64,000 bases of DNA from assembly GCA_052437175.1 (NCBI GenBank), contig JBQVOK010000004.1:183337-247336 (forward strand). Direction: 5' to 3'. This DNA is from Flavobacteriales bacterium. Lineage in GTDB: Bacteria; Bacteroidota; Bacteroidia; CAIKAF01. The notes under the pieces are model-generated. The model ran no database searches, was not told the origin of the DNA, and was given only the letters and a program-made list of their open reading frames with translations. Position numbers and translations under genes: made by a program. This document shows, in pieces, positions 42,437-60,752 of this stretch (position 1 is the stretch's first letter; every line of letters starts with the position of its first letter).

Positions 42437-43180
42437 TCAGGCGAGGGTCTGCAAAAGTTCGGTACGTTCGTTGGTGGTGGTATCCAGTATCCCGATGCGT
42501 TTAAAGGAGATAAAGGAGCCCATGTCGTAATCCCCGTTGATAAAGATGGCCCCGGCCAGGATCACGTGTCTGCAGGTGAACTTGGTACCGGCCACCAGTT
42601 CTTCGATCTTCTGGTCGATGGCGTCGTACATGATACCGGTAGCCTCCAGCACAGGATTTTCGGCGGTAATGATGCGGTTCTCGTGCTGGTACAGGATCTG
42701 TTCAATGATGTTCATCTGGTGGTCGGAGAGCGAGCGTTTGCCCGGCTCTATACGCCGCGCCCGCAGTTTGGCTATGGCCGCATGTACGGGATAACTGCAG
42801 GGCGAATAACTGATCTGTCCCGAACGCAGTACGGCCCCGATATTGGCATCTTTGGTAACCCCGGTATTGGGCGCATACAGGATGCAGGCCGCCCCGTCTT
42901 CGGGTACGTGCTGTGCAAACATCTGCATGCCGGTTTTGCCCGCAAAGGGATACCCGCACAAACCGCCCATCCGGAAAGGCCCCAGCATCTGCAGGGCATT
43001 GGCAGGATATTGTACGGAGTTTATTTCGTCGGAACCTATACTATCAGCATATACCAGCTGGGCAGGTTTGTAACCCGCATGATCGGATATCATCTGCAGC
43101 AGCATGGTTATGGCATCTTCACTTGCGAGCGCATCAGGATAAAATCGTCTAACCGTTTCTAAATGCTTTTTATTACTCAT
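42437..43180 (-). CDS. Hypothetical cytoplasmic protein
   Basis: 247 aa with no signal peptide. It lies 74 nt upstream of the three-gene unknown cluster. I could not assign a family. Confidence 0.55.
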   Translation of the reverse strand: MSNKKHLETVRRFYPDALASEDAITMLLQMISDHAGYKPAQLVYADSIGSDEINSVQYPANALQMLGPFRMGGLCGYPFAGKTGMQMFAQHVPEDGAACILYAPNTGVTKDANIGAVLRSGQISYSPCSYPVHAAIAKLRARRIEPGKRSLSDHQMNIIEQILYQHENRIITAENPVLEATGIMYDAIDQKIEELVAGTKFTCRHVILAGAIFINGDYDMGSFISFKRIGILDTTTNERTELLQTLA

Positions 43181-43314
43181 GATTACTGTTATTTACAAAA
43201 CTCGGAGCGGGTATGATGGCAGGGTTTTGTAATAGCAGGCCTGTGTCATGAATAAGGTATGCGCATTACCTCTATCCGTATTATACTGAAATTGGCTGCG
43301 CCGGGTTACATTTT

Positions 43315-44316
43315 CTACATTAAAATATTGTTTACAGGCGTTATCGGTTTGGGTAAATCGCTCTCATTCAGCATTTCGCGCAGGTCTATTTCGATGCTGC
43401 GGCTCAGGGCGGTGATGGGTACGTCGTTCGGACCGCCTTCGAAAGGGTTCTCCGTACTTTCGCCCACCTGTTCCATAGAGGTAAAGATCCAGGAAACCAG
43501 CACGCTGAACGGGATGGTGAACCATACGCAGTAATCGCCGATCTTGTTGAACTCGTTCAGCATACCGAAAGGCAGAATGCATACGAATATCCAGATAAAG
43601 AACAGGTTAATGCTGGCGAACTGGCGCGGGTAGGGGAAGTTCTTGATGCGTTCGGACCTGCCCTGTTGTTCGTAGAGGTCGGCCAGGCGGCGTTCCAGCT
43701 CTACAAAACGGTAGTTTTCCAGGCTTCCGTTCCGGTTCAGGAGGCGCAGTTGTTCCGACTGGATGGCAATGATCTGCGTGGCAGGATTGGCCCTGTGCTG
43801 TACCTGTGCAAACTCGGCTTCCGAAAGGTAAGGCCGCACGGCTTCTGCAAAGGGCATCTGCTGTTCGGGTACTTTAAAATGGCGGTGGTATTCTACGTTG
43901 TAGGATTTGTTCTGGTTTTCCCAGGAACGCGGGCTGCGCAGCTGGTAACGCAGGGCCGTAAGCCAGGCTATATGCCGGTATACCAGGGTTCTGTGTACTT
44001 CGGCGTCGGCAGTGGCATCGCCGCTCTGGATAAAATCGCGCACCATAATGCCCCAGCTTCTGCTGCTGTTTACTACGGCTCCCCATATCTGCCGGGCCTC
44101 CCAGAGGCGGTTGTAGGTCTGGGTGTTTTTAAAGCCCACGATAAAAGCGGCACCCGTACCTACCAGGGCTACCGGAACCCAGGGTATGCCCAGCCAGTGC
44201 CAGCCGAAAACGGCAAAAAGTACGGTGGGAATGGTGGAAATAAGTACGAGGATAAAAATGTTGACCTTGGTCCAGACAAGGAATTCTTTCAGTTTATAAT
44301 GGCTTCCGGTATGCAT
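43315..44316 (-). CDS. Bestrophin-family (UPF0187) anion channel homologue
   Basis: ORF 43315..44397. I prefer the start at the Met of MHTGSHYKLKEF (44316), which removes the overlap with the upstream NhaP. It has TM helices at the N-terminus and in the last third, a bestrophin-like layout. The family call rests on pattern recall. Confidence 0.5.
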   Translation of the reverse strand: MHTGSHYKLKEFLVWTKVNIFILVLISTIPTVLFAVFGWHWLGIPWVPVALVGTGAAFIVGFKNTQTYNRLWEARQIWGAVVNSSRSWGIMVRDFIQSGDATADAEVHRTLVYRHIAWLTALRYQLRSPRSWENQNKSYNVEYHRHFKVPEQQMPFAEAVRPYLSEAEFAQVQHRANPATQIIAIQSEQLRLLNRNGSLENYRFVELERRLADLYEQQGRSERIKNFPYPRQFASINLFFIWIFVCILPFGMLNEFNKIGDYCVWFTIPFSVLVSWIFTSMEQVGESTENPFEGGPNDVPITALSRSIEIDLREMLNESDLPKPITPVNNILM

Positions 44317-44329
44317 ATTCCGTAACGGT

Positions 44330-45931
44330 TTAGAGTGTAAGACGGGCTTCGTCGAGGTCGAGCTGGTTTTCCTGCTTGCGTACCACTTCGTGTTCAAAAA
44401 TGCGTTCGTGGTGAATTTTGGCCAGTTCGCTGCGCTGTGCCTGTATCAGGTCCAGCAGTACCCGGTTGTATTGCTCGATCCCGGCCTTTTCCATGGTATC
44501 GCATTCCAGCGATTCCAGGCGCTGGTGGGTAAGACTGATGTCGTTCTCGAGGCGTTTTTTCAGGTTCTCTACCAGTTCGTTGGCCGAAATATGCGGGGCG
44601 TGTGCCTGGTTAAGCCGTTCCAGGGCCGAACGCATGAGGCGCAGGCGTATGGCGGCTTCCTGTTCTTCTACGGGGATCAGGTCGTCGATCTCGCGTATAT
44701 GAGCCCAGCGGATAATGAAGGGCAGGCTCAGGCCCTGTACCACCAGGGTTACCAGGATCACCACAAAGGTGATGAACAGGATGAGATTGCGCTGTGGAAA
44801 ATGCTGGCCGTTATCCAGCAGCATGGGCACCGAAAGTGCCGAAGCCAGCGATACCACTCCGCGCATACCCGCCCAGCTGATGAGCAGGGGCCCCTGCCAG
44901 CCCGGACTGGGTTCCTTGGCCCGGATCGATTTGCTGAGCCAGCGGGGTACAAAGGCCGCCGGGTATACCCAGATAAAACGGATAAGAATGGTAATAGCGC
45001 TGATAATAAGTCCGTAACGTATGCCCTCGCTGATGGAGTACCCGTTGAGACCTTCTACAATAATAGGCAGTTCGAGCCCGATAAGAATGAAAATAATGCC
45101 GTTGAGGATAAAAATAACGGTAGACCATACGCTTACCGTCTGCAGGCGCGACTGGTGATTGAAAATGACATTGCTGCGGTACGAAAGAAAGAGTCCGCCG
45201 CTTACCACAGCCATTACCCCGGAAAAGTGGAACTGCTCTGCCCCGATGTACATAATGTAGGGGGCCATAAAGGTAAGTGCCGTATCGATGTTTGACGTAG
45301 TAGGAAAGTAGCGGTGGATCACATAAAAGACCATGGCCACGGCCAGTCCGCACACAATACCCATGCCGGCCACGATAAAGAAATCGGAAACGGCCTCCCG
45401 CAGGGTGAAATGCCCGGTGAGTACGGCTGCCAGTGCAAAGCGGAACACAATGAGGCTGGACGCGTCGTTGATGAGGCTTTCGCCTTCGAGGATGGTCACC
45501 ACACGTTTGGGAATCTTGATGCCTTTGAGCACCGAGGTGGCCGCCACGGCATCGGGGGGCGAAATGATGCCGCCCAGCAGGAAACCCATGGCCAGGGTAA
45601 ACCCGGGGATCATCTGGCTGGAGACCAGGGCTACTATGCAGGAGGTAAAGATCACCAGCCCGAAGGCCAGCAGCCCGATGGGGCGTTTCCATTTCCAGAA
45701 ATCGTTCCATGAGGTGTACCAGGCCGCTTCATAGAGAATGGGCGGCAGAAAGATGATAAAGACCAGCTCCGGGTCCAGTTCAATATGCGGAATGCCCGGT
45801 ATCAGGCTGATGATAAGGCCTCCCAGTACCAGGAATATCGGGTAGGATATACGTAGTTTCTGCCCCAGCATCACCAGCATGGAAACAGCAAAGAGAAGCG
45901 AAATGATGAGAAGTATCGTATGGTGAAGCAT
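44330..45931 (-). CDS. Na+/H+ (cation/proton) antiporter, CPA1/NhaP type
   Basis: 533 aa with 10-12 TM helices followed by a ~130-aa cytoplasmic tail. The N-terminus resembles NhaP/CPA1 (…FLVLGGLIISLIP…PPILYEAAWYTSW…). Confidence 0.85.
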   Translation of the reverse strand: MLHHTILLIISLLFAVSMLVMLGQKLRISYPIFLVLGGLIISLIPGIPHIELDPELVFIIFLPPILYEAAWYTSWNDFWKWKRPIGLLAFGLVIFTSCIVALVSSQMIPGFTLAMGFLLGGIISPPDAVAATSVLKGIKIPKRVVTILEGESLINDASSLIVFRFALAAVLTGHFTLREAVSDFFIVAGMGIVCGLAVAMVFYVIHRYFPTTSNIDTALTFMAPYIMYIGAEQFHFSGVMAVVSGGLFLSYRSNVIFNHQSRLQTVSVWSTVIFILNGIIFILIGLELPIIVEGLNGYSISEGIRYGLIISAITILIRFIWVYPAAFVPRWLSKSIRAKEPSPGWQGPLLISWAGMRGVVSLASALSVPMLLDNGQHFPQRNLILFITFVVILVTLVVQGLSLPFIIRWAHIREIDDLIPVEEQEAAIRLRLMRSALERLNQAHAPHISANELVENLKKRLENDISLTHQRLESLECDTMEKAGIEQYNRVLLDLIQAQRSELAKIHHERIFEHEVVRKQENQLDLDEARLTL

Positions 45932-45973
45932 GCCGAAAGATAAGGGAAAACCGTAAGACTGGAAAAGGCTGTT

Positions 45974-46585
45974 CTATAACGGGGCCACGGTGTTGCGCGT
46001 AAGCTTCAGGTCGCGGATATACCCGTCCTCGAGGCTGTACACCCAGCCGTGAATATAGGGATATTCACCTTTTTCCCATTCGTCCTGGATAAAGGAGACC
46101 ATCGACAGGTTCTTTACCTGTTCCTGTACGTTCAGCTCCACATAGCGGTCAGATTTTTTCTGCGGGTCGCTGATCAGCTCCAGCTCCTCCTTATGCAGCA
46201 TGCCCACATTGCGTATATGCGAGAGCCAGTTGTTCAGGAAACCATAGTTGTCGCCGGTTATCGCCGCGTTCACACCTCCGCAGCCGTAGTGGCCGCATAC
46301 GATAATGTGTTTTATTTTCAGGTGTTTAACGGCGAAATACACCACGCTCAGCATGTTCATATCGGTATGCACCACCATATTGGCAATATTACGGTGTACA
46401 AAAATAGAACCCGGCAGGTGATTGGTTACTTCGGTGGCGGGTACGCGGCTGTCGGAACAACCGATCCACAGGAACTGCGGGTTTTGTCCTTTCGACAGCT
46501 GATCAAAAAAGTCGGGAATGGTCTCATTCATTTTTTTCACCCATTCCTTGTTTCCTTCCAGGAGTTTTTTTATCAATTCGGCCAT
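45974..46585 (-). CDS. Beta-class carbonic anhydrase
   Basis: 203 aa with zinc ligands in CSDSR…HxxCGG context (WIGCSDSRVPATEV … IIVCGHYGCGGVNAA). Confidence 0.9.
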   Translation of the reverse strand: MAELIKKLLEGNKEWVKKMNETIPDFFDQLSKGQNPQFLWIGCSDSRVPATEVTNHLPGSIFVHRNIANMVVHTDMNMLSVVYFAVKHLKIKHIIVCGHYGCGGVNAAITGDNYGFLNNWLSHIRNVGMLHKEELELISDPQKKSDRYVELNVQEQVKNLSMVSFIQDEWEKGEYPYIHGWVYSLEDGYIRDLKLTRNTVAPL

Positions 46586-46683
46586 TGTTTTTTTTTGGCA
46601 ATATAGGAATTCGGTTTACGTCACCGGGCATATACCCGAAAAATTCAGGGGCAGGGAACGGCACTGCACCGGTGTACAGGCTT

Positions 46684-48006
46684 TTAGGGAGTGTGGCCGG
46701 GCATGCCTTTTTTACGGTTGAAGAGCAGGATAAACAGCAGGGTACTCAACCCGGTAAGCAAAGGGTAATAGAGTACGGCAATAAGTTCAGAGGCCGGTAC
46801 GGCAAACCCGGCCAGCGTGAGCGCCGTAAGCACCTGTGCCCCGTAGGGAAGCAGGCCCTGTACCGAACAGGTTATGGTATCCAGTATACTGGCGCTTTTG
46901 CGCAGATCGACATTGTTTTTAACGGCGATCTCGCGGGCTACGGGCCCGGTGATCAGTATGGCGATGGTATTATTGGCCAGGCAGGCATTTACGCCCGCCG
47001 CCAGTGCCGCAATACCCAGGGAGGCCCTGCGTGGCGAACCGCTGTGCCGGTCCAGGCGCTGCAGCAAGAACTGTATGCCGCCGTGGTAGCTGATCAGGCC
47101 TGTTATTCCGCCGATGAGTATACAAATAACGCACAGCTCATACATACCCGCCATACCCGTATTTACCGAAGCCATACCCTGCAGCAGCAACAGGCTGCCC
47201 CGGTACATACCCAGGGCCAGGCTTAGCAGAATACCGCATACTAAGGTCCACAGTACGTTAAGGCCGCAGAGGGCCAGCACAAAAATGACTGCGTAGGGCA
47301 GCATGGTAAGCAGGTCGTAAACTCCGGCTGCCGGAAGTTCCTGCCTTTGTGTACCGTAAAATATGTACAGGGCGATCGTAAGGAGCGCGGCGGGCAGTAC
47401 CACCATAACGTTGAGACGGAACTTATCGCGCATGTTCACGCCCTGCGTACGTGTGGCGGCAATGGTGGTATCAGAAATGAAAGAGAGATTATCGCCGAAC
47501 ATGGCCCCGCCGATCACCGCAGCCAGGGCGGGAGCCAGGCTGTCTGGCACGCTCTGGCTCAAGCCAGCGGCAATAGGTGTAACTGCGGCAATGGTGCCCA
47601 CCGAGGTGCCCAGAGAAAGCGAAATAAAGGCCGCAATGACAAAAAGTCCGGCCACGAAGGTCCCCGGCGACAGGTAGTGCAGGGCGAACTGTACCACAGA
47701 ATCAACGGCGCCGATGTCTTTGCTCAGTTGCCCGAAAGCCCCGGCCAGTATAAAAATAAGGCACATAAGCATAAGATCGCTGTGACCGGCTCCCCGGCAG
47801 AATTCCTGCAGACGCAGGGCAAAAGGCACCGAAGGGAACTGAAGTAAACCGATGACGGCGGTCAGCAGAAAGACCACCGGCACCGGTAGTTGATAAAAGT
47901 CGCCGAAGGCAATGCCGGCGCCCAGGTAGATGAGAACAAAGAGCAGCAGCGGCAGCAGGGCCAGCGGGTTGCCTTTTTCGGAGCGGAGTGTGCTTTCAGA
48001 GCTCAT
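46684..48006 (-). CDS. NhaC-family Na+/H+ antiporter
   Basis: 440 aa with about 12 TM helices. Confidence 0.6.
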   Translation of the reverse strand: MSSESTLRSEKGNPLALLPLLLFVLIYLGAGIAFGDFYQLPVPVVFLLTAVIGLLQFPSVPFALRLQEFCRGAGHSDLMLMCLIFILAGAFGQLSKDIGAVDSVVQFALHYLSPGTFVAGLFVIAAFISLSLGTSVGTIAAVTPIAAGLSQSVPDSLAPALAAVIGGAMFGDNLSFISDTTIAATRTQGVNMRDKFRLNVMVVLPAALLTIALYIFYGTQRQELPAAGVYDLLTMLPYAVIFVLALCGLNVLWTLVCGILLSLALGMYRGSLLLLQGMASVNTGMAGMYELCVICILIGGITGLISYHGGIQFLLQRLDRHSGSPRRASLGIAALAAGVNACLANNTIAILITGPVAREIAVKNNVDLRKSASILDTITCSVQGLLPYGAQVLTALTLAGFAVPASELIAVLYYPLLTGLSTLLFILLFNRKKGMPGHTP

Positions 48007-49727: not shown

Positions 49728-50267
49728 ATGGAAGGTACAATCGGAGAAATCCGCCTTTTTGCCGCTACATTCGCACCAAAAAACTGGTGGTATTGTGACG
49801 GCTCGATTATCGCAATCAGATCCAATACGGCACTGTATTCCATTCTGGGTACCACTTATGGTGGCGACGGAGTGCAGACATTTGCCTTACCCGATCTGAA
49901 AGGACGTTCAGCTCTGGGAGCAGGGCAGGGTAACGGCCTCAGCTACTATCCCCTGGGAGCCATGACGGGAGTGAACAATGTAACGCTGCTGTCATCGAAC
50001 CTGCCGCCGCACACGCACACGGCAACCAACAACATTGTTATTCCGGCTTATTCGGATGAAGGCACGGCCAGCACGCCGGCCAACAATGTACTGGCCGCAA
50101 AAGGTCAGATGTATACGAACCTGGCGGGTGATACGAACCTGCATCCGATTCCGTATAACGTAACCGTTGGAATCGCCGGTGCCAGTCAGCCGCTTACGAT
50201 CACACAGCCGGCACTGGGTATGAACTACGTTATCTGTATGTACGGTGTTTTCCCGGCCAGACAGTAA
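49728..50267 (+). CDS. Phage-tail-collar domain (MdpB-like) protein, paralog 1
   Basis: 179 aa with a collar-domain N-terminus (IGEIRLFAATFAPKNWWYCDGS…YSILGTTYGGDGVQTFALPDLKGR) and an HxH motif (LPPHTHTA). Confidence 0.85.
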   Translation: MEGTIGEIRLFAATFAPKNWWYCDGSIIAIRSNTALYSILGTTYGGDGVQTFALPDLKGRSALGAGQGNGLSYYPLGAMTGVNNVTLLSSNLPPHTHTATNNIVIPAYSDEGTASTPANNVLAAKGQMYTNLAGDTNLHPIPYNVTVGIAGASQPLTITQPALGMNYVICMYGVFPARQ

Positions 50268-50326: not shown

Positions 50327-50869
50327 ATGGAAGGTTATATAGGAGAAGTACGCCTGTTTGCAGGTAATTTTGCCCCGCGCAGCTGGGCGTTCTGCGACGG
50401 CAGCTCCATGAGCATATCAGAATATTCTGCCCTGTACGCTATTATCGGCGATACATTCGGCGGCAACGGTGTTACCAGTTTTGACCTGCCCGACCTGCGC
50501 AGCCGCGTGGCCGTAGGTGCAGGAACAGGTCCCGGCCTTACGCCCATTGCACTGGGTCAGGCTGCCGGAACAGAAACGGCAAGTATGTCGGTATCCCAGA
50601 TGCCCGCACACAATCACTTTGCTTCGGCCGTAGTTTCGATGCCGGCATACAGCGGTACCGATACACAGGGAACGCCCACCAATAACTACCTGGCCGGACT
50701 GGCCGGCGCTTATTCGGCAGAAGTGCCCGATTCGCACCTGGCTCCCATTGCGGCCCCGGTAGCACTGAGCACGGCGGGCGCGGGTATCCCGTTCCCGATC
50801 ATACAGCCGATCACGGCTCTTAATTACATTATTTGCGTGGAAGGTATTTTCCCCAGCAGAAACAATTAA
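50327..50869 (+). CDS. Phage-tail-collar domain (MdpB-like) protein, paralog 2
   Basis: 180 aa with the same architecture and an HxH motif (MPAHNHFA). Confidence 0.85.
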   Translation: MEGYIGEVRLFAGNFAPRSWAFCDGSSMSISEYSALYAIIGDTFGGNGVTSFDLPDLRSRVAVGAGTGPGLTPIALGQAAGTETASMSVSQMPAHNHFASAVVSMPAYSGTDTQGTPTNNYLAGLAGAYSAEVPDSHLAPIAAPVALSTAGAGIPFPIIQPITALNYIICVEGIFPSRNN

Positions 50870-50906: not shown

Positions 50907-51452
50907 ATGGAAGGAACAATGTCAGAAATCCGCCTTTTTGCCGGGAATTTCGAACCGAAATCCTGGGCATACTGTGCCGGACAACTTTTACCGATAAATA
51001 CCAACCAGGCCCTGTTCAGCCTGCTGGGAACCACATACGGAGGTAACGGGATCCAGACCTTTGCGCTGCCCGACATGCGTGGCCGCATACCTATGGGAAC
51101 CGGCAATGCAGCCGGAATAAACACATACCAGCTGGGCGAAGTGAACGGTGTGAACAACGTAACGGCCACCATGGCCAATCTGCCCGCTCATACCCATAGT
51201 CCGGCTCCCGGCCTGGCACTGAGTATCCCGGCCTATTCAGATTCCGGGGATGTGGGAACACCTACCGGCAATCACCTGGCGGCTCTCGGCGGACTGTATT
51301 CCAACAAAACGCCGGACACCACCATGAAGCCGATCAGCACCAGTGTAACCGTAAGTGTTACCGGGTCTAACCAGCCGATGAGCCTGATGCAGCCTTATCT
51401 CGGAATGAATTATATAATCTGCCTGTATGGAATTTTTCCTTCCAGAGGATAA
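50907..51452 (+). CDS. Phage-tail-collar domain (MdpB-like) protein, paralog 3
   Basis: 181 aa with the same architecture and an HxH motif (LPAHTHSP). It is about 55% identical to paralog 1 by eye. Confidence 0.85.
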   Translation: MEGTMSEIRLFAGNFEPKSWAYCAGQLLPINTNQALFSLLGTTYGGNGIQTFALPDMRGRIPMGTGNAAGINTYQLGEVNGVNNVTATMANLPAHTHSPAPGLALSIPAYSDSGDVGTPTGNHLAALGGLYSNKTPDTTMKPISTSVTVSVTGSNQPMSLMQPYLGMNYIICLYGIFPSRG

Positions 51453-51528: not shown

Positions 51529-52659
51529 ATGAGAATAGCTTTACTTTTACCCCGCTCCATGCTGTACCCGTCCCTGTCTTTTGACATGATGGACGGACTT
51601 AAGTCGGGCCTGAAAAGAACAGGTCTGGATGCCCGGTATGAGGTAGTTTCGGCCAGTATAGGCCTGGCTGCCAAAAACGAGGAGATCTATGCCCGTTGCG
51701 AGCAGGTACTGCTCGACGGTGCCGATGTGGTAGTGGCGTATATGAACCCGCTTTCGGCCGAGTATGTGCATGCTCTCTTCCAGAGCTCAGGCAAACGCCT
51801 GGTGGTGCTCGACAGCGGGTATCATTTCCCGGCATTCCAGGGAAAACTTTCCCATGCCTGGTTCCTTTCTTTACAAGGTAATCTTTGCTGCCGCACCATT
51901 ATGCAGAAGGCTGCTGCGGATGGTTACCGCAATTTTGCACTCAGCTGTTCCTTCTACGATGCGGGTTACCGTCCTTCGTACAGCTACACCACGGCGGCCG
52001 AAGATAAAGGCGGTACCGTGGGCCTGAGCCATATCACACCGCTGCGCCGGGCCGAGTTTAGCCTGGAACGCCTGGCCGAATACCTGGGAGAAAATAAAGA
52101 TGCCGCAATGCTGGCTTCTTTCTGCGGCGATATGGCCGAAGATTTTTTCCGGGAAAGCAGCCGCCTGGAGCTGAGTACCACTTACGATACCTACGGCGCC
52201 GCATTTACGGCTGAGGAAGAATGGCTGGCCAAAATACCCTATCCGGGTAAGGACTGGGATGCGGCCGTTCCGTGGGCCAAAAGCATTGCCACGCCGGCAA
52301 ACGAAGCGTTTGTAAGTACCCTGGAAAGCATCCGCGAAAATAAAGCCAACCTGTTTTCACTGCTGGGCTGGGAAGCCGCCCTTTTTATAGCCGCCACGGA
52401 AACCGGCAGCCCGGAAGGGATCGTTCTGGATTCGCCCCGCGGCCGCGTGCAGATAAATCCCGACACCCAGTTCTCGGAAGCACCGGTATATTTTGCACGG
52501 GTAACGAAGAACGAAGAAACGGGTAACTGCCGCCTTAGCGATGTACGCGATGCCGGAGACCTGCAGGAAGAACGCAGACTGCTGCAGCGCGATATCGATT
52601 ATATACAGACCACAACGGCCAATTCATGGCTGAACGCATACGCCTGCCTGGACTCATGA
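51529..52659 (+). CDS. Signal-less PBP1-fold ligand-binding protein (LivK/AmiC-like), function unknown
   Basis: 376 aa. The N-terminal pattern RIALLLPRS…GLKSGLKRTG…YEVVSAS…ADVVVAYMNPLSAEYVHALFQSSGKRLVVLDSG resembles type-1 periplasmic-binding-protein cores, but there is no signal peptide. Confidence 0.5.
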   Translation: MRIALLLPRSMLYPSLSFDMMDGLKSGLKRTGLDARYEVVSASIGLAAKNEEIYARCEQVLLDGADVVVAYMNPLSAEYVHALFQSSGKRLVVLDSGYHFPAFQGKLSHAWFLSLQGNLCCRTIMQKAAADGYRNFALSCSFYDAGYRPSYSYTTAAEDKGGTVGLSHITPLRRAEFSLERLAEYLGENKDAAMLASFCGDMAEDFFRESSRLELSTTYDTYGAAFTAEEEWLAKIPYPGKDWDAAVPWAKSIATPANEAFVSTLESIRENKANLFSLLGWEAALFIAATETGSPEGIVLDSPRGRVQINPDTQFSEAPVYFARVTKNEETGNCRLSDVRDAGDLQEERRLLQRDIDYIQTTTANSWLNAYACLDS

Positions 52660-53588
52660 GTAACACCCGCCCGCATATAGCTCTTCTCTGTAACAACCGT
52701 ATGGCTGTTCCCGCCCTGCAGACCCTGCATGGTATGGGATTGCTCTGTGCAATAGGCGTGCCGGAGAACAATGCGGATATTATGGATTTCTGTTCTGTTT
52801 TTGCTGCACAGACGGGTATTCCCCTGCAACTTTTCCGTAAAGAGGATTTAGCTGCGCAGCTGAACAACTGGCTGGAGACCAGCCGGGCTGAGACCGTGTT
52901 TATGATGACCTTCCCCTGGAAAATACCGGCTGAGGTACTTTCAGGACAGGCAAAATTCTACAATTTTCATTACGGATTATTACCGGAGATGCGTGGTGCA
53001 GACCCGGTTTTTGAGTCCCTGCGCCAGCAGAAAAAAGAAACGGGCATTACGGTGCATGCGGTTGAAAAAGGTATCGACCGCGGACCGGTGCTTTTTCGTC
53101 AGCCTTTGCCGCTGAGTGCAGATATGACACATGGATTGCTGTGTACCCAGCTGGCTTACCTGGGTGCACGCATCATTCCCGAAGTGCTGAATTCGCTTCA
53201 GCATACAGGGCAGGCACAGGATGAAAGCGGGGCCCGTTATTTCAAAAGGCCGGGTCTGGCCGAAGTATGTGTACGCTGGGAAAGCCAGGATGCCGCTGCG
53301 GCCGCCGCACTGGCCCGGGCCTGTAACCCCTGGAACAAAGGGGCCTATACACAATGGAACGGCTGGAACGTACGCATTGTGGAAGCTACGCCGGTACAGG
53401 CAGACGCAAACGGAGCCCTGCCCGGTACGGTACTTTCCATCGACCGCGAGGGCGGACTTTGCGTGCAATGCAAAGACAATACGCAACTTAAAATCGATAT
53501 TATTTATACCGACGAAGGATTTATGTCCGGACACCGGCTCCTGAGCTTCGGAATGAAGAAAGGCGATCGTTTTACCACTATTCAATAA
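52656..53588 (+). CDS. Fmt-like N10-formyl-tetrahydrofolate-dependent formyltransferase (N- and C-terminal domains), not the canonical Met-tRNA formyltransferase
   Basis: Start taken at MSNTRPHIALL… (52656), which overlaps the upstream stop by 4 nt. The catalytic Asn and His sit in FYNFHYGLLPEMRGADP and the Asp in HAVEKGIDRGPVL. A C-terminal Fmt-like domain is present (…CNPWNKGAYTQWNGWNVRI…). It lacks the Fmt N-terminal GTPxFA / PDRPxGRG signatures. Confidence 0.75.
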   Translation: MSNTRPHIALLCNNRMAVPALQTLHGMGLLCAIGVPENNADIMDFCSVFAAQTGIPLQLFRKEDLAAQLNNWLETSRAETVFMMTFPWKIPAEVLSGQAKFYNFHYGLLPEMRGADPVFESLRQQKKETGITVHAVEKGIDRGPVLFRQPLPLSADMTHGLLCTQLAYLGARIIPEVLNSLQHTGQAQDESGARYFKRPGLAEVCVRWESQDAAAAAALARACNPWNKGAYTQWNGWNVRIVEATPVQADANGALPGTVLSIDREGGLCVQCKDNTQLKIDIIYTDEGFMSGHRLLSFGMKKGDRFTTIQ

Positions 53589-53611: not shown

Positions 53612-56600
53612 ATGAAACATTACGTACATTCTGCATCCAAGGCGTTTCTGCTTTTCTGCCTGCTTGCAGCAGCGATTTTGCAGGGCCGCGATCTTAAGGC
53701 CCAGACGAGCCTTGCTGCGGGCGATATCGCCTTCACGGGGTACAACTCCAACGCATCGCCTGCGGCAGGTGATACCATCGCTTTTGTGCTGCTTACCAAT
53801 ATTTCGGCCAGTACGCAGATCAGCATTACCGACCGCGGTTATAACGGCAGCGGCTGGGTGGGCGCGGGTTCCACAGAAGGGACCATTACCTGGACCACCG
53901 GTTCGGCCTTACCCTGGGGCACAGAGATCTATATCTGCGGCCTTTCGGCGCGGGTATACAACCCGGTATCAGGTACCTTTACCTCCAACGGTAGTGTAAC
54001 GCTTACAGAAGGAACCTCTCCGAACGGACTGTCCATCTCGAACGTGGGCGACCAGTTCATTGCCTTCCAGGGTGGTGGCGGATCTATTACGGGCGGCGGC
54101 GTTACGATCATTGCCGGTCTGCACTTTCTTACCTGTAATGCCAATACCAGCACGGCAACCTGGGACGGAGCGGGTTGTACCATCGGTCCCAATTCATCCG
54201 TTATGCCTCCCGGTCTTACCGGAGGTACCAATGCTTTTTATACAGGCACCATGCCCGGCGGCATACTGCCGACCATCGCCCGTTTTAACTGTACGGGAAC
54301 CCCGGCGACCACGCCTGCACAGATCCGCACGGCCGTTATGAACCAGGCCAACTGGACCCTTGCCAATTCTGCACTTTCCATGCCTTCCAAATGTGTATTT
54401 GTAAGTTCTACCCCGGTGATCAATGCACACCCGCAGAACCGCACCATTTGTAACAACGGCAATACCACCATGTCTATTTCGGCCATAGGGGCCACATCTT
54501 ATCAATGGTATGTGAATACCGGTGCCGGTTTCAATATGGTTCCGGCCGGAGCACCCTACAGCGGTATAAATACCAACACACTTACCATAACAGGGGGTAC
54601 CACGTCTATGAACGGCTACCAGTACCGTTGTGTAGCTACCAACGGCTCAGGCTCAGCCACCAGTAACCCGTCTACACTCACCGTAATTACAGTAACCACA
54701 ACGGGTAGCAGCACGAACGTAAGCTGTATCGGCGGCAATAACGGCAGCGCCACGGTGGTTGCTTCCGGCGGAATTTTGCCCTATACGTACAGCTGGAGCC
54801 CGAGCGGCGGCACAGCAGCCACGGCCAGCGGACTTGCTGCAGATAACTATTCCGTGCTGGTAACCGACAATATAGGATGCCAGGCCACACGGGCCTTTAA
54901 TATTACGGAACCGGCTTCCGGTATGAGCGCTACGATCTCTAAAACCGATGTAAGCTGCAACGGCGGCGGTAACGGAACGGCAACCGTGGTAGTATCGGGC
55001 GGTACTACACCGTATACCTACAGCTGGTCGCCGAGCGGCGGCACCAATGCTACAGCTACCGGTCTCAGCCAGGGAACCTACACGGTAACCGTAACCGATA
55101 ACGGTGGTTGCCAGATCACCCGTAGTATTACCGTAAACCAGCCGGCTACGGCCCTGGGCGGAACTACTTCTAAAACGGACGTAAGCTGCAACGGCGGTGG
55201 CAACGGAACGGCTACGGTAGTAGCTTCCGGCGGTACCACACCGTATACCTACAGCTGGTCACCAAGCGGTGGCACCAATGCTACGGCTACGGGTCTCAGC
55301 CAGGGAACCTACACGGTAACGGTAACCGATTTTAACGGTTGCCAGATCACGCGCAGCGCTACGGTAAACCAGCCTGCTACGGCCCTGGGTGGAACTACTT
55401 CTAAAACAGATGTAAGTTGTAATATGGGTAGCAACGGAACAGCTACGGTAGTAGCTTCCGGCGGTACTACACCGTATACCTACAGCTGGTCGCCAAGCGG
55501 CGGCACCAATGCTACGGCTACGGGTCTTGCTGCGGGTACCTACACGGTAACGGTAACCGATTTTAACGGTTGCCAGATCACGCGCAGCGCTACGGTAACC
55601 CAACCGGCAACGGCCCTGGGCGGAAGCATTTCTAAAACGGATGTAAGCTGCAACGGTGGTAGCAACGGAACAGCCACAGTAGTAGCTTCCGGTGGTACTA
55701 CACCCTATACCTACAGCTGGAGCCCGAGCGGCGGCACCAATGCCACGGCTACAGGTCTTGCGCAGGGTTCCTACACAGTAACGGTAACCGATTTTAACGG
55801 TTGCCAGATCACGCGCAGCGCTACGGTAACCCAACCGGCAACGGCCCTGGATGGTACCATTTCTCAAACCGACGTAAGCTGTACCGGTGGATCTAACGGA
55901 ACGGCTACGGTAGTAGCATCCGGCGGAACTACACCGTATACCTACAGCTGGAGCCCGAGCGGTGGCACCAATGCCACGGCAACGGGTCTTGCGCAGGGCA
56001 CTTATACGGTAACAGTAACCGATTTTAACGGTTGCCAGATCACGCGCAGCACTACGGTAAATCAACCGGCTACCGCCCTGGACGGTACCACTTCTAAAAC
56101 GGATGTAAGCTGTAATGGAGGTAGCAACGGAACGGCCACAGTAGTAGCCTCCGGTGGTACAGGAACCTATACCTACAGCTGGGCACCGAGCGGTGGCACC
56201 AATGCCACGGCAACGGGTCTTGCCGCCGGTACCTACACGGTAACGGTAACCGATAACAATAGCTGCCAGATCACCCGTACCGTAACGGTAAATCAGCCTG
56301 CGGCCCTTGACGGTACTACCTCTAAAACGGATGTAAGCTGCAACGGCGGAGCCAACGGCACGGCCACGGTGGTTGCTTCCGGTGGTACTACGCCCTATAC
56401 CTACAGCTGGTCACCGAGCGGTGGTACCAATGCTACGGCAACGGGTCTTTCACAGGGTACATATACCGTAACGGTAACCGATAACAATACCTGTCAGATC
56501 ACCCGCACGGTAACGGTAAATCAGCCTGCGGCCCTCGATGGCACTATTTCCAAAACGGATGTAAGCTGCAACGGCGGAAGCAACGGAACGGCCACAGTAG

Positions 56601-59600
56601 CAGTGTCCGGCGGTACTACACCCTATACCTACAGCTGGGCTCCTTCGGGCGGAACGGCTGCTACGGCTACGGGTCTTGCCCAGGGCACTTACACGGTAAC
56701 CGTAACCGATAACAATACCTGCCAGATCACCCGTACGGTAACGGTAAATGAACCTGCTGCCATGGTGCTTACCCCGTCTCACACCGATGTAAGCTGTAAC
56801 GGCGGCGGTAACGGAACAGCTACCGTAACGGTAAGCGGCGGCGCTACTCCATACAGCTACAGCTGGTCGCCATCGGGCGGAACGGCTGCTACAGCTACCG
56901 GTCTTGCCGCAGGCACGTACACGGTAACTGTGACCGACAACAATACCTGCCAGGCTACGCAAAGCATTACGGTAAATCAGCCTTCTGCCATCAGCCTTAC
57001 GCCTTCACATACGGATGTAAGCTGCAATGGCGGTTCTAACGGTACGGCCACGGTAACAGCCAGTGGTGGTGTGGGGCCTTACAGCTACAGCTGGAGCCCG
57101 AGCGGCGGCACAGCAGCTACGGCCACGGGTTTGGCTGCGGGTACGTACACCGTAACCGTAACCGATAACAATACCTGCCAGGCTACGCAAAGCATTACGG
57201 TAAATCAGCCTTCTGCCATCAGTCTTACGCCTTCACATACGGATGTAAGTTGTAACGGAGGTTCTAATGGTACGGCCACAGTAACAGCCAGCGGTGGTGT
57301 GGGTCCTTACAGCTACAGCTGGAGCCCGAGCGGTGGTACCAATGCCACGGCCACGGGTTTGGCAGCGGGTACGTACACGGTAACGGTAACCGATAACAAT
57401 ACCTGCCAGGCTACGCAAAGCATTGCGGTAAGTCAGCCTGCTGCCCTTAGTATAACACCTTCGCATACGGATGTAAGCTGTAATGGCGGTTCTAACGGTA
57501 CGGCCACGGCTACGGTAAGCGGTGGTGTAGGTCCCTACAGCTACAGCTGGTCGCCATCAGGCGGCACCAATGCCACAGCTACAGGTCTTGCGGCAGGCAC
57601 GTATACGGTAACGGTAACGGATAACAATACCTGCCAGGCTACGCAAAGCATTACGGTAAATCAGCCTGCTGCGATCAGCCTTACTCCCTCACATACGGAT
57701 GTAAGCTGCAATGGCGGTTCTAACGGTACGGCCACGGTAACAGCCAGTGGTGGTGTGGGTCCTTACAGCTACAGCTGGAGCCCGAGCGGCGGAACGGCTG
57801 CTACAGCTACAGGTCTTGCTGCAGGTACGTATACGGTAACTGTGACCGATAACAATACCTGCCAGGCTACACAGAGCGTTACCATTACAGAGCCCTCGGC
57901 TTTCAGTGTAACGCCTTCGCACACGAATGTAAGCTGTAACGGCGGCAGCAACGGTACAGCCACGGTAACGGTAAGCGGCGCCACGGCACCGTACAGCTAC
58001 AGCTGGTCGCCATCAGGCGGCACCAATGCCACGGCTACGGGTCTTGCCGCAGGCACCTACACGGTAACCATCACCGATAATAATACCTGCCAGACCACAC
58101 AGAGCATTACCATCACGCAGCCTTCGGCTTTCAGCGTAACACCTTCGCATACCAATGTAAGCTGTAACGGCGGCGGCAACGGCACGGCCACGGTAACGGT
58201 AAGCGGTGCTACAGCGCCATACAGCTACAGTTGGTCGCCATCGGGCGGCACCAATGCCACAGCTACAGGTCTTGCCGCAGGCACGTATACGGTAACCATC
58301 ACGGATGACAATACCTGCCAGACGACACAGAGCATTACCATCACGCAGCCTTCGGCCTTCAGCATCACGGCTTCACAGACAGATATACTCTGCAATGGAG
58401 CCTCTACCGGTACGGCCACGGTAACGGTGAGCGGCGCTACGGCTCCCTATACCTACAGCTGGAGTCCTTCAGGCGGTACAGCGGCTACGGCCAGCGGTCT
58501 TTCTGCAGGTACGTATACGGTGACCATCACCGACAGCAATATGTGCCAGGCCACACAAAGCTTCAGCCTGCTGCAGCCCCTGGCCTTCAGTATTACGGGC
58601 AGTCAGACCAATATCAGCTGTAACGGCGATTCTACAGGTACGGCCACCGTAACGGTAAGCGGCGCCACAGCCCCGTATACCTACAGCTGGAGTCCTTACG
58701 GCGGTACAGCGGCCACGGCTGCGGGTCTTGTAGCGGGTACCTACACGGTAACGGTTACCGACAGCAACCTGTGCCAGACCACACAAAACTTTACCCTGAC
58801 CGAGAGCCCGGCCCTGGCCGTTCAGGTTTCATCGGCAGACCTAAGCTGCTTCGGTGCTAACAACGGTTATGCAGCCGTAACGGTAAGCGGCGGCGTAGGT
58901 CCGTATACTTACAGCTGGACCGGTGGCGGAGCAACGGATTCTATCGGCGGACTTACCGCAGGTGTGTATACCGTAACCATTACCGATTCCCTGTTCTGTA
59001 CCACACAAGCAAATGTTACGATAAACGAACCTGCCGAACTGACCCTGCAGATGTGGCAGCAGAATATTTCCTGCACAGGTAACGGCGCCGACGGTATGGC
59101 TGCCGTAACCGTAAGCGGCGGAACTACCCCGTACAACTACAGCTGGACGCCGGGTGCCCAGACAAACGACAGCCTCAGTAACCTGGCCGCCGGTACCTAC
59201 ACGGTACTGGTTACCGATGACAATGGCTGCAGTGCTACAGACAGCGTTGTGATAGACGGCCCCGAGCAGTTCCAGGCAACGCAGAATGTAAGTATCTGCC
59301 AGGGCCAGAGTTACAGCATCGGAAACAGTACCTACACAGCGGGTGGTACGTATACCGATACACTGCTTACAGCCGCCGGCTGCGACAGCGTGGTAACAAC
59401 CATACTGACCGTAAATACCGTAAATGCGACCATTACCAATAACGATCCCACACTGCTGGCTTCTGCAGGTGGCACAGACTACAAATGGATGAACTGCGAA
59501 ACCGGTCAGCTCATCGGTGGCGCCACATCGCAGAGTTACACAGCCACAGCCAACGGCAGCTATGCGGTGATCATAACACAGAACGGATGTACCGATACTT

Positions 59601-59872
59601 CGGCATGCGCGGACATTGTACGCGTATCGCTGAACGAAATACCGGACGGTTCTGTAAACTTCTTCCCGAACCCGACCCGTGGTTCCATCACGGTAAAAAC
59701 GGACGGTATCATCGTGAAGAAGACTGAACTGATGGACATCACCGGTAAACAACACCCGGTGATCCAGAACGGAAACAGCCTGGACCTTTCGGCACTGCAA
59801 AACGGGGTATACCTCGTGCGCATCACCGATGTAAATGGCAGGCAGTACACTTCACGTATCGTGAAGATCTAA
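53612..59872 (+). CDS. Giant cell-surface adhesin with about 20 tandem SprB-type repeats and a T9SS C-terminal sorting domain
   Basis: 2086 aa with a signal peptide. About 20 repeats of 75-78 aa follow the pattern TDVSCNGG(S/G)NGTATV..SGG..PYTYSWSPSGGT(N/A)ATATGL..GTYTVTVTDNN.CQ. The C-terminal CTD is FFPNPTRGSITVKTDG…NGVYLVRITDVNGRQYTSRIVKI. Confidence 0.9.
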   Translation: MKHYVHSASKAFLLFCLLAAAILQGRDLKAQTSLAAGDIAFTGYNSNASPAAGDTIAFVLLTNISASTQISITDRGYNGSGWVGAGSTEGTITWTTGSALPWGTEIYICGLSARVYNPVSGTFTSNGSVTLTEGTSPNGLSISNVGDQFIAFQGGGGSITGGGVTIIAGLHFLTCNANTSTATWDGAGCTIGPNSSVMPPGLTGGTNAFYTGTMPGGILPTIARFNCTGTPATTPAQIRTAVMNQANWTLANSALSMPSKCVFVSSTPVINAHPQNRTICNNGNTTMSISAIGATSYQWYVNTGAGFNMVPAGAPYSGINTNTLTITGGTTSMNGYQYRCVATNGSGSATSNPSTLTVITVTTTGSSTNVSCIGGNNGSATVVASGGILPYTYSWSPSGGTAATASGLAADNYSVLVTDNIGCQATRAFNITEPASGMSATISKTDVSCNGGGNGTATVVVSGGTTPYTYSWSPSGGTNATATGLSQGTYTVTVTDNGGCQITRSITVNQPATALGGTTSKTDVSCNGGGNGTATVVASGGTTPYTYSWSPSGGTNATATGLSQGTYTVTVTDFNGCQITRSATVNQPATALGGTTSKTDVSCNMGSNGTATVVASGGTTPYTYSWSPSGGTNATATGLAAGTYTVTVTDFNGCQITRSATVTQPATALGGSISKTDVSCNGGSNGTATVVASGGTTPYTYSWSPSGGTNATATGLAQGSYTVTVTDFNGCQITRSATVTQPATALDGTISQTDVSCTGGSNGTATVVASGGTTPYTYSWSPSGGTNATATGLAQGTYTVTVTDFNGCQITRSTTVNQPATALDGTTSKTDVSCNGGSNGTATVVASGGTGTYTYSWAPSGGTNATATGLAAGTYTVTVTDNNSCQITRTVTVNQPAALDGTTSKTDVSCNGGANGTATVVASGGTTPYTYSWSPSGGTNATATGLSQGTYTVTVTDNNTCQITRTVTVNQPAALDGTISKTDVSCNGGSNGTATVAVSGGTTPYTYSWAPSGGTAATATGLAQGTYTVTVTDNNTCQITRTVTVNEPAAMVLTPSHTDVSCNGGGNGTATVTVSGGATPYSYSWSPSGGTAATATGLAAGTYTVTVTDNNTCQATQSITVNQPSAISLTPSHTDVSCNGGSNGTATVTASGGVGPYSYSWSPSGGTAATATGLAAGTYTVTVTDNNTCQATQSITVNQPSAISLTPSHTDVSCNGGSNGTATVTASGGVGPYSYSWSPSGGTNATATGLAAGTYTVTVTDNNTCQATQSIAVSQPAALSITPSHTDVSCNGGSNGTATATVSGGVGPYSYSWSPSGGTNATATGLAAGTYTVTVTDNNTCQATQSITVNQPAAISLTPSHTDVSCNGGSNGTATVTASGGVGPYSYSWSPSGGTAATATGLAAGTYTVTVTDNNTCQATQSVTITEPSAFSVTPSHTNVSCNGGSNGTATVTVSGATAPYSYSWSPSGGTNATATGLAAGTYTVTITDNNTCQTTQSITITQPSAFSVTPSHTNVSCNGGGNGTATVTVSGATAPYSYSWSPSGGTNATATGLAAGTYTVTITDDNTCQTTQSITITQPSAFSITASQTDILCNGASTGTATVTVSGATAPYTYSWSPSGGTAATASGLSAGTYTVTITDSNMCQATQSFSLLQPLAFSITGSQTNISCNGDSTGTATVTVSGATAPYTYSWSPYGGTAATAAGLVAGTYTVTVTDSNLCQTTQNFTLTESPALAVQVSSADLSCFGANNGYAAVTVSGGVGPYTYSWTGGGATDSIGGLTAGVYTVTITDSLFCTTQANVTINEPAELTLQMWQQNISCTGNGADGMAAVTVSGGTTPYNYSWTPGAQTNDSLSNLAAGTYTVLVTDDNGCSATDSVVIDGPEQFQATQNVSICQGQSYSIGNSTYTAGGTYTDTLLTAAGCDSVVTTILTVNTVNATITNNDPTLLASAGGTDYKWMNCETGQLIGGATSQSYTATANGSYAVIITQNGCTDTSACADIVRVSLNEIPDGSVNFFPNPTRGSITVKTDGIIVKKTELMDITGKQHPVIQNGNSLDLSALQNGVYLVRITDVNGRQYTSRIVKI

Positions 59873-60053: not shown

Positions 60054-60752
60054 TCAGTGGGGTTCCGGCCGGTCTTTGCCACCCCGCAGACGGGGTTCAT
60101 AGTACAGGATATTACTCCAGTCGCCGATGCCCAGTATAAACCATTTTTCCTGTTCGATCTTGGCTATTTCCTGTTCCAGGGCAGTGGTATCGGCAAGCTC
60201 TTTAGGACCGAATAATTTCTGCAGCAAACCGGCAGGCCTGCGCTGCTCTTCCAGTTGTTTCTGTAAAGCCTGAAGGCGCAGGTTAAAGATATCCACTTCG
60301 GTATAAAAATCGGCGATGAGGTCGTCGATATTCTGTATTTCTTCGTGCAGTTCGGCGTTCTGTTTTTCCGGTCCGTTGTCACCCATCTCAAACAGCTCGG
60401 CACATTCCAGGATCATATAATCCAGGTGGTTTTCTTCGTTGTTCAGAAAGGCCCGGGTACGGCTGATGTGGAGGCGGAGTTCCGTTTCGGGATAGATGTT
60501 GCGGGCGCTGAGCTCTTCCAGGAAGCGGAAAAGACGGTCGCGTCCCTCTTTGTAACGGCCGCGTATGGCAATGGCATCATCATAATCCCATATCACGGAA
60601 CGGCATATCTTCGGGTCGGCGCTTACAAGGATCTGGAAGGGAAGGGGTAAATAGTAATTGTATTCAGCAATACCACGCGAACGACCGCCTGCTTTATGAG
60701 GATTTTCCGCCGGATCGAAATCCAGGGCATATAAATAACTTCGGTTTGCCAT
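60054..60752 (-). CDS. Hypothetical cytoplasmic protein
   Basis: 232 aa with no signal peptide and an acidic, coiled-coil-prone C-terminal half. No recognisable family. It is followed upstream by a 344-bp AT-rich non-coding region. Confidence 0.55.
   Translation of the reverse strand: MANRSYLYALDFDPAENPHKAGGRSRGIAEYNYYLPLPFQILVSADPKICRSVIWDYDDAIAIRGRYKEGRDRLFRFLEELSARNIYPETELRLHISRTRAFLNNEENHLDYMILECAELFEMGDNGPEKQNAELHEEIQNIDDLIADFYTEVDIFNLRLQALQKQLEEQRRPAGLLQKLFGPKELADTTALEQEIAKIEQEKWFILGIGDWSNILYYEPRLRGGKDRPEPH

Follow-up and report, generated by a model that had tools for sequence, protein, structure and literature searches.

Methionyl-tRNA formyltransferase (Fmt; TIGR00460; PDB 1FMT/2FMT) consists of two domains, Formyl_trans_N and a C-terminal beta-barrel, and carries an Asn/His/Asp triad, an xLLPxxRG folate-site motif and an NPW motif that opens the C domain. 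Its loop 1 (PDRPAGRGKK) recognises the acceptor stem of the initiator tRNA, as in the 2FMT complex. The UDP-Ara4N formyltransferase domain of ArnA (ArnA-N; PDB 2BLN, 5J63) has the same two-domain fold, has neither the Fmt loop 1 nor the GTPxFA motif, and is a precedent for a non-tRNA acceptor. We analysed a 64,000-nucleotide stretch of a Flavobacteriales bacterium (GenBank assembly GCA_052437175.1, contig JBQVOK010000004.1, positions 183,337 to 247,336 of the forward strand; hereafter the window), which encodes a formyltransferase of the Fmt/ArnA fold (FT) at 52656..53588 on the plus strand. The FT shares the domains, the triad and both motifs with Fmt, but loop 1 is deleted and the gene sits in an accessory operon with phage tail-collar-like proteins, not in a housekeeping context. 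This operon, or cassette, encodes three collar paralogs, a protein of the type I periplasmic binding protein (PBP) fold, the FT and a giant secreted adhesin-like protein. Our data make it highly probable that the FT is a cassette-dedicated, non-Fmt, folate-dependent amine formyltransferase, a tailoring enzyme of a conserved Bacteroidota operon. It would move a formyl group from 10-formyltetrahydrofolate (10-formyl-THF) to an amine on something that the cassette makes or handles.

Translation of the raw sequence gives 310 aa for the FT reading frame 52656-53588, whose ATG shares bases with the TGA of the 376-aa open reading frame (ORF) 51529-52659 (ATGA, in ctcATGAgt). The longest ORF, 320 aa, begins at a further ATG 5' of this one, at 52626. 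Among 55 related loci, the junction between the PBP-like gene and the FT gene is a -4 ATGA overlap in 41, TAATG in seven and a gap of 8 nt or less in five, and the start is uncallable in two. Because the -4 start is kept in 41 of the 55 loci and the ATG at 52626 occurs only in the window's own lineage, the FT product is most likely 310 aa long. A scan for promoters and terminators stayed at background level, but was not designed for Bacteroidota promoters.

The FT matches PF00551 (Formyl_trans_N; 53.7 bits, E 2.9e-14) and PF02911 (Formyl_trans_C; 52.1 bits, E 8e-14), both above gathering, and its AlphaFold model has a pLDDT of 96.3. The catalytic residues are Asn103, His105 and Asp141, the folate-site motif of the SLLP type reads NFHYGLLPEMRG, and the family motifs include FTMTFPWK, YNFHYGLLPEMRG and ACNPWNKGAYT. 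Across 92 clade members, which are 28-56% identical to the window FT, neither the triad nor the xLLP motif varies. Since these residues persist over such divergence and the fold model is confident (pLDDT 96), the FT is presumably catalytically active. When 1.84 billion cluster representatives were searched exhaustively, at least 210 clusters (50% identity) matched at E<=1e-30; of the best 150, nearly all have a length of about 310 aa and match end to end. Given this number of clusters and the conserved synteny, the observation is far beyond chance. In these comparisons the FT family stands as a deep, distinct clade, separate from true Fmt.

On the NCBIfam equivalog model for fmt (TIGR00460, curated cutoff 201.5 bits) the window FT scores 103.5 bits (E 1.2e-29), about half the cutoff. 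None of the 92 diverse clade members reaches it, the best being at E 2.6e-44 or roughly 150 bits. In the family alignment with E. coli Fmt and ArnA (Fmt residues 52-273 match an independently printed alignment), the R-G-K-K positions of Fmt loop 1 are gaps in 147-151 of 151 clade sequences. In place of the Fmt motif GTPDFA stands (L)CNNRMAxPA, a motif conserved across the FT family. Because of the sub-cutoff score, the deletion of loop 1 and the replacement of GTPxFA, the FT is best read as a non-canonical enzyme of the Fmt fold and not as a Met-tRNA formyltransferase; action on Met-tRNAfMet is very unlikely. The net charge of the C-terminal domain, a proxy for tRNA binding, was not discriminating (+1 in E. 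coli, mean -2.6 with sd 2.3 in the FT family).

It could still be argued that the FT is a divergent housekeeping Met-tRNAfMet formyltransferase. Fmt is its highest-scoring characterised relative (the TIGR00460 match above; 1fmt at E 5.8e-21), there is no other fmt within the 64-kb window, and some annotation pipelines name the family 'methionyl-tRNA formyltransferase', although the current NCBI name is 'formyltransferase family protein'. A tblastn search with the E. coli Fmt sequence matched only FT genes in the window and in the retrieved loci, and neither fmt nor def, beside which the single housekeeping fmt often lies, is present in any of them. Against this idea stand the alignment results above and the accessory nature of the cassette, which a pattern-based scan of one genome per species found at 46 loci among 185,579 species genomes and which Spirosoma carries on a plasmid. 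We regard a housekeeping role as extremely unlikely, and from its membership in an accessory cassette, with one copy on a plasmid, we infer that the FT is an extra copy beside a canonical fmt.

A sequence-only reading of this DNA had already proposed a second, non-Fmt formyltransferase at these coordinates, with full-length likeness to Fmt including the C-terminal domain, the catalytic N, H and D, replaced N-terminal motifs that argued for a substrate other than Met-tRNAfMet, and a start overlapping the stop of a signal-less PBP-fold gene. Apart from its being a second copy, which is probable, this is borne out by the analysis, and the motifs that it quoted (LLCNNRMAV, VPENNAD, FYNFHYGLLPEMRG, GIDRGPVL and ACNPWNKGA) are all present. 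Its length of 320 aa has to be corrected, as it depends on the non-conserved ATG at 52626. The core of that reading holds, namely that the enzyme is not Fmt and that it is coupled to a PBP-fold protein of the cytoplasm, but it had missed the collar triad, the adhesin exported through a type IX secretion system (T9SS) and the enzyme that occupies the FT slot in other phyla.

The other formyltransferase families do not accommodate the FT either. Foldseek aligned the FT model over its full length with Fmt structures (TM score 0.82-0.87) and with the ArnA formyltransferase domain (0.82-0.86 for full-length matches), so that the model is structurally equidistant from the two. Unlike ArnA, with which it is about 20-23% identical, the FT has no fused decarboxylase and no arn genes nearby; arn-like neighbours were absent from more than 55 loci, and the score on the ArnA model NF005998 is 69.2 bits against a cutoff of 777. 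The model for sugar N-formyltransferases of the WlaRD, VioF, FdtF and WbtJ type (NF005755) gives 18.8 bits against 238, and the core cassette contains no sugar-nucleotide genes. PurN (42.5 bits against 150.1) is a single-domain enzyme and PurU (17.8 bits against 286) is fused to an ACT domain; the FT differs from both by its extra C-terminal domain. On these measures the FT belongs to none of the families Fmt, ArnA, sugar N-formyltransferases and PurN/PurU.

The next structural neighbours of the FT are the hydrolase domain of 10-formyl-THF dehydrogenase (FDH; TM score 0.76-0.81), HypX and the sugar N-formyltransferases (0.63-0.71). The closeness of the FDH hydrolase domain leaves some room for a protein without a transferase role, either a 10-formyl-THF hydrolase or one-carbon regulator resembling the FDH domain or PurU, or an idle scaffold for collar assembly. 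We consider this quite improbable. The invariance of the triad and of the folate-site motif over deep divergence argues for catalysis, the PurU matches are marginal, and the replacement of the FT in other phyla by an N-acetyltransferase of the GNAT family, described below, points to acyl transfer and not to folate hydrolysis.

The three genes that open the cassette encode short paralogs without signal peptides: 179 aa at 49728..50267 (N-terminus MEGTIGEI), 180 aa at 50327..50869 (MEGYIGEV) and 181 aa at 50907..51452 (MEGTMSEI), all on the plus strand. They score 84-91 bits on PF07484 (Phage Tail Collar; COG4675/MdpB type) against a cutoff of 24, and match tail-fibre PHROGs and, within the short tail fibre gp12 of T4, its collar region, a match that the third paralog also gives. 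An HxH motif is kept in all aligned collar paralogs. This is similar to the gp12 receptor-binding tip (PDB 1OCY, 1H6W), in which work by Thomassen and colleagues from 2003 reportedly placed a metal bound by the HxH motif on the trimer axis. The collar proteins differ from gp12 in lacking a fibre shaft: each is a stand-alone protein of about 180 aa, and three paralogs occur together in an operon on a chromosome or plasmid. Viral contigs yielded no relative of the FT, the sole PHROG match of the FT is a generic PurN-like family, and PADLOC had no match for any cassette protein.

The PBP-like protein (376 aa; 51529..52659, plus strand) matches Peripla_BP_6 at 34.6 bits (cutoff 31.7). Its AlphaFold model (pLDDT 91.1) aligns over the whole length with type I PBPs of the LIVBP, UrtA and AmiC type (TM score 0.7-0.8, maximum 0.79; Foldseek E 2e-17). 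The first beta-strand begins at residue 2 and leaves no room for a signal peptide, so that the protein is predicted to be cytoplasmic. There were no transporter genes near the PBP-like gene in any locus examined. The label 'branched-chain amino acid transport' substrate-binding protein, carried in public annotation, is therefore unsupported. In the fold and in the lack of both signal peptide and transporter genes, the protein resembles the cytoplasmic amide sensor AmiC (PDB 1PEA/1QNL). It is only 10-17% identical to AmiC and LIVBP, however, has conserved cleft residues of its own as well as a C-terminal tail that is invariant, and its gene is coupled to that of an enzyme and not to that of a regulator such as AmiR. 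The invariant residues are S10, Y13, D19, Y71, D95, S96, H99, S141, D144, D201, D205, E230 and W232. The tail (52621-52659; NSWLNAYACLDS) is predicted to be disordered (pLDDT <50) and follows the pattern N[ST]W[LF]N[AS]Y[AP]CL[DE]S-COOH, which is invariant in the family and contains no conserved Lys. The tail probably serves some partner as a docking or recognition element. An apparent natural fusion of the PBP-like protein and the FT (P0331, 444 aa) was rejected, as its N-terminal extension is unrelated to the PBP family and the start was probably over-called.

The PBP-like protein and the FT are each dispensable to the other. A Spirosoma plasmid (L060; FT identity 33%) carries three collar genes, the FT and a 1487-aa protein with carbohydrate-binding module and immunoglobulin (Ig) domains, and no PBP-like gene. 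Fulvitalea, also of the Bacteroidota, lacks an FT and has genes for a sulfotransferase, collar proteins, a PBP-like protein and a giant T9SS protein. Homology of this PBP-like protein to the window family is unambiguous (hhalign probability 99.7%), and it retains the tail (...GWLNAYMCVD) where no FT gene follows. The suggestion of the sequence-only reading that the PBP-like protein presents or senses the FT substrate is weakened by these loci and, as an obligate role, is probably wrong.

The giant protein (2086 aa; 53612..59872, plus strand) has a signal peptide, SprB repeats and a T9SS type A C-terminal sorting domain, and its gene begins 23 nt past the FT stop. Its N-terminal domain of about 265 aa (53612-54400) matches nothing in Pfam or PHROG, yet shares 50-58% identity across genera and is tied to the cassette. 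The same domain recurs in L053 (1379-2731) as a stand-alone 450-aa protein with a sorting region, right after an FT relative. Draft assemblies usually break in the repetitive giant gene, and many contigs end 1-3 kb into it.

The 46 loci of the pattern-based scan come from Chryseobacterium, Flavobacterium, Taibaiella, a Weeksellaceae metagenome-assembled genome (MAG) and a Chitinophagales MAG. The order collar1-collar2-collar3-PBP-FT-giant is found in 45 of them, with collar orthology of 1:1:1; the exception is L043 (FT identity 35%), in which the PBP-like and FT genes precede the three collars. In all, the cassette occurs at more than 50 Bacteroidota loci, and Flavobacterium johnsoniae UW101 has it as ABQ07054-ABQ07059. 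More distant FT relatives were sampled by individual context look-up; four of these loci (L052, L053, L054 and L055) are short contigs of limited use. In Fluviicola (L059; FT identity 36%) three collars, the PBP-like gene and the FT are followed by a SprB protein. In L062 (37%) three collars, the PBP-like gene and the FT come after genes for a 2-oxoglutarate (2OG) oxygenase, an Asp/Arg hydroxylase family protein and sulfotransferase-like proteins. Nine collars precede the PBP-like gene, the FT and a 1137-aa protein in L056 (33%), and at least eight collars precede the PBP-like gene, the FT and an 856-aa protein in L061 (32%). In L053 (41%) the PBP-like gene, inside which the contig ends upstream of the FT, the FT and the 450-aa protein are present. 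The collar genes come in threes (three, nine or at least eight per locus), each time with one FT, so that the FT does not serve as a structural partner in fixed stoichiometry. A GH25 lysozyme gene directly follows that of the large secreted protein in each of the two cassettes with eight or nine collars (L056:13461-14114 and L061:9956-10588).

Collar triads are not confined to the Bacteroidota. A tblastn search with one collar protein against 72,556 plasmids matched 57 records, mostly with exactly three copies. In the annotated or ORF-called neighbourhoods of ten lineages from other phyla (plasmids L063-L067, L069, L072 and L075-L077, of Rhizobium, Deinococcus, Paenibacillus, Aminobacter, Comamonas, Pontibrevibacter, Azospirillum, Pseudoalteromonas, Ensifer and Tritonibacter) a GNAT N-acetyltransferase gene lies directly beside the triad. 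A protein of about 900 aa or more also adjoins the triad in nine of the ten, the exception being Azospirillum. These large proteins are of the giant Ig-like, autotransporter or beta-helix type, and that of Rhizobium is an Ig-repeat autotransporter. The operon type spans Bacteroidota, Proteobacteria, Firmicutes and Deinococcota, and what recurs in it is the collar triad, together with a small-group transferase and a large surface protein. Where identifiable, the export route of the large protein is phylum-specific: a T9SS sorting domain marks it in Bacteroidota, an autotransporter domain in Rhizobium. The collar triad module appears to be a general, undescribed module.

The collar-linked GNATs are mutually homologous across phyla (34-61% identity in the pairs checked). 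An assignment to RimI was rejected: RimI was the top NCBIfam hit for all seven that were tested, but at 24-41 bits against a cutoff of 86 this is generic GNAT similarity. The GNATs have a fold unrelated to that of the FT and use acetyl-CoA instead of 10-formyl-THF, yet they occupy the same slot beside the collar triad and the giant surface protein and presumably, in analogy to the FT, pass a small acyl group to an amine. Because a GNAT fills its operon slot in other phyla, the FT is, by this analogy, the Bacteroidota counterpart of the GNAT, a non-orthologous replacement with a putative amine-acylating role.

The slot of the PBP-like protein is more variable, and the idea that a PBP-like protein is present in every lineage was discarded. 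In alpha-proteobacteria a different, beta-propeller-like protein of 400-490 aa lies between the collars and the GNAT (L077:7106-8329 and L066:7056-8540; 29% identity, E 2e-37), with weak FG-GAP/tectonin-like matches; this is the PBP-like slot of Bacteroidota and Deinococcus. In Deinococcus ficus a gene for a Peripla_BP_6 protein overlaps the GNAT gene. The relation of the Deinococcus PBP-like proteins to the window PBP family is marginal (hhalign probability 22-44%), although one is Peripla_BP_6 by Pfam.

The type of transferase correlates with the second residue of the collar proteins. Methionine aminopeptidase leaves Met1 in place when the second residue is bulky or charged, and otherwise exposes Ser, Ala or Thr. 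The second residue is E or D in all 152 collars of the window type with an FT (152/152), and E, L, D, F, K or R in 22 of 25 collars of the distant FT loci, the remainder being the A, S and A of L043. In GNAT-linked collars it is S, A, T or G in 19 of 21, and S, T or A in 8/9 of a further set. Counted by lineage, a Met-retaining second residue is found in five of six FT lineages and in none of ten GNAT lineages (Fisher p=0.0014). The N-terminal motifs are one residue apart, M-S/A-E-P-F... with GNAT and M-E/D-P/G-... with FT. This pattern fits N-terminal capping of the collars.

We tentatively propose, with somewhat less than even confidence, that the acceptor of the FT is the alpha-amino group of the N-terminal residue of the collar proteins. 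The Fmt-derived FT would formylate the retained Met1 of the collars by the same chemistry as on Met-tRNA. In other phyla the GNATs would acetylate the Ser, Ala or Thr exposed by Met excision. RimI, RimJ and RimL are enzymes that acetylate Ser or Ala N-termini. Either route would yield an uncharged acyl-X-(E/D)-P/G... N-terminus on a presumed collar heterotrimer. The PBP-like protein, co-produced with the FT by way of the overlapping stop and start, would be an accessory that is frequent yet dispensable, whether adaptor, sensor or assembly factor. Taken in full, the proposal would make the FT a post-translational protein N-terminal formyltransferase, an Fmt descendant switched from Met-tRNA to collar Met1 and a twin of the Rim-like GNATs, with capping required to mature a widespread, so far undescribed heterotrimeric fibre tip that works with giant adhesins. 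In this complete form it is rather unlikely.

Several observations weigh against collar capping. All FT lineages are Bacteroidota, so the correlation of the second residue with the transferase is confounded by phylogeny. The rearranged locus L043 has an FT, but its collars begin MA, MS and MA. The collars of Fulvitalea and of Deinococcus QL22 begin ME or MD with no acyltransferase seen, and those of Deinococcus KNUC1210 begin MA with no adjacent GNAT. Three members of the FT clade (L052, L057 and L058; identity 33-37%) have no collar genes nearby. We know of no enzyme of the Fmt family that formylates a protein N-terminus after translation, and to our knowledge all characterised non-Fmt members of the fold act on small molecules. 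The partners of the transferases are ligand-binding folds, PBP-like in Bacteroidota and Deinococcus and beta-propeller-like in alpha-proteobacteria, and sulfotransferase and carbamoyltransferase genes lie near collar triads; both facts fit a small-molecule or glycan acceptor equally well.

Such an acceptor, the main alternative and the one put forward in the sequence-only reading, is possible, if somewhat doubtful. The PBP-like protein would bind and present or sense an amine metabolite (an amino sugar, a sugar nucleotide, an amino acid or a polyamine), the FT would formylate it, and the product would decorate or be recognised by the collar and adhesin apparatus. The PBP fold is confident, and its invariant residues, placed by the secondary-structure map, would lie on the loops after beta-strands that line the ligand cleft. 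The stop/start overlap of the PBP-like gene and the FT is conserved, and a Deinococcus PBP-like gene also overlaps that of the GNAT. ArnA, FDH, HypX and the sugar N-formyltransferases, the characterised relatives of this fold other than Fmt, all act on small molecules, and the sulfotransferase, carbamoyltransferase and methyltransferase genes by the collar triads resemble glycan tailoring. Tips of the gp12 type bind lipopolysaccharide sugars, which also counts for this explanation. On the other side, the FT occurs without the PBP-like protein in Spirosoma and the reverse holds in Fulvitalea. The core cassette lacks an aminotransferase, a glycosyltransferase, a nucleotidyltransferase or other biosynthetic genes, the first three of which a dedicated amino sugar would call for. 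The match of the FT to the sugar N-formyltransferase models (18.8 bits against 238) is very weak. A small-molecule acceptor also leaves the correlation between transferase type and second residue unexplained.

The FT might instead formylate another protein of the cassette, either a Lys or a processed N-terminus of the giant adhesin or the C-terminal tail region of the PBP-like protein. A large secreted protein is always adjacent to the FT gene. The FT relatives in L053 and L057 adjoin T9SS cargo, in L057 in a context without collar genes, and the tail of the PBP-like protein is invariant and predicted to be disordered. However, the adhesin is a Sec/T9SS substrate that is exported unfolded, for which a cytoplasmic modification would be unusual, and the large proteins are non-homologous between lineages. 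The tail is kept where the FT is absent and has no conserved Lys. We consider this explanation improbable.

Should collar capping hold, formylation of a protein N-terminus would be the first such activity outside translation initiation, which would be categorically new, and it would account for the interchangeability of an Fmt-like enzyme with a GNAT. Even with a small-molecule acceptor, the presence of the cassette in the genetically tractable F. johnsoniae UW101 makes the question directly testable. The public annotation of the FT and of its PBP-like partner is generic or wrong, and our analysis ties the FT clade to a conserved operon. A literature search on the themes collar, formyltransferase, Flavobacterium, T9SS/SprB, MdpB/COG4675 and rhiABC found no description of the cassette. 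A protein with the Pfam tail-collar domain occurs in the exoproteome of Ruegeria pomeroyi (PMC4949626), and RhiB of the Rhizobium rhi operon carries a tail-collar domain (PMC13133039). Taken together, the data suggest that operons combining collars, a transferase and a giant protein are a general, unstudied surface apparatus that arose from a domesticated phage receptor-binding tip.

Further genes were noted beside collar triads. Tailoring-enzyme genes cluster in L062 (3646-5840), L043 (2011-5459), L070 (8176-11921), L072 (480-4716 and 8222-10894) and L073 (8992-10702). They encode 2OG-Fe(II) oxygenases, members of the Asp/Arg beta-hydroxylase family, sulfotransferases, NodU-type carbamoyltransferases and methyltransferases, and lasso-peptide-like PqqD, B2 and asparagine-synthetase genes are also among them. 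The 2OG oxygenase and the Asp/Arg hydroxylase, which adjoin the collars in L062 and L043, belong to families that modify peptides or proteins. These clusters may point to extensive modification of a cassette product. On a plasmid of Tateyamaria omphalii (L070:5890-7836) the three collars are longer, about 200-212 aa, and their N-terminal extensions resemble signal peptides, unlike the signal-less collars elsewhere.

The rest of the window holds genes outside the cassette. On the minus strand at 42437-48006 lies a tight group of genes that encode an LCIB-type carbonic-anhydrase-like protein, a bestrophin-family channel, a Na+/H+ exchanger, a beta-carbonic anhydrase (45974-46585) and a Na+/H+ antiporter, with Pfam assignments taken from the identical contig L047. 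This group looks like a cluster for the handling of CO2, bicarbonate and ions. A DUF7822 protein is encoded at 60054-60752 (minus strand). Just downstream of the giant gene and convergent with it, a second T9SS cargo protein with four Ig_7 'CHU_C-associated' domains and a Por_Secre_tail is encoded at 62012-63937 (minus strand).

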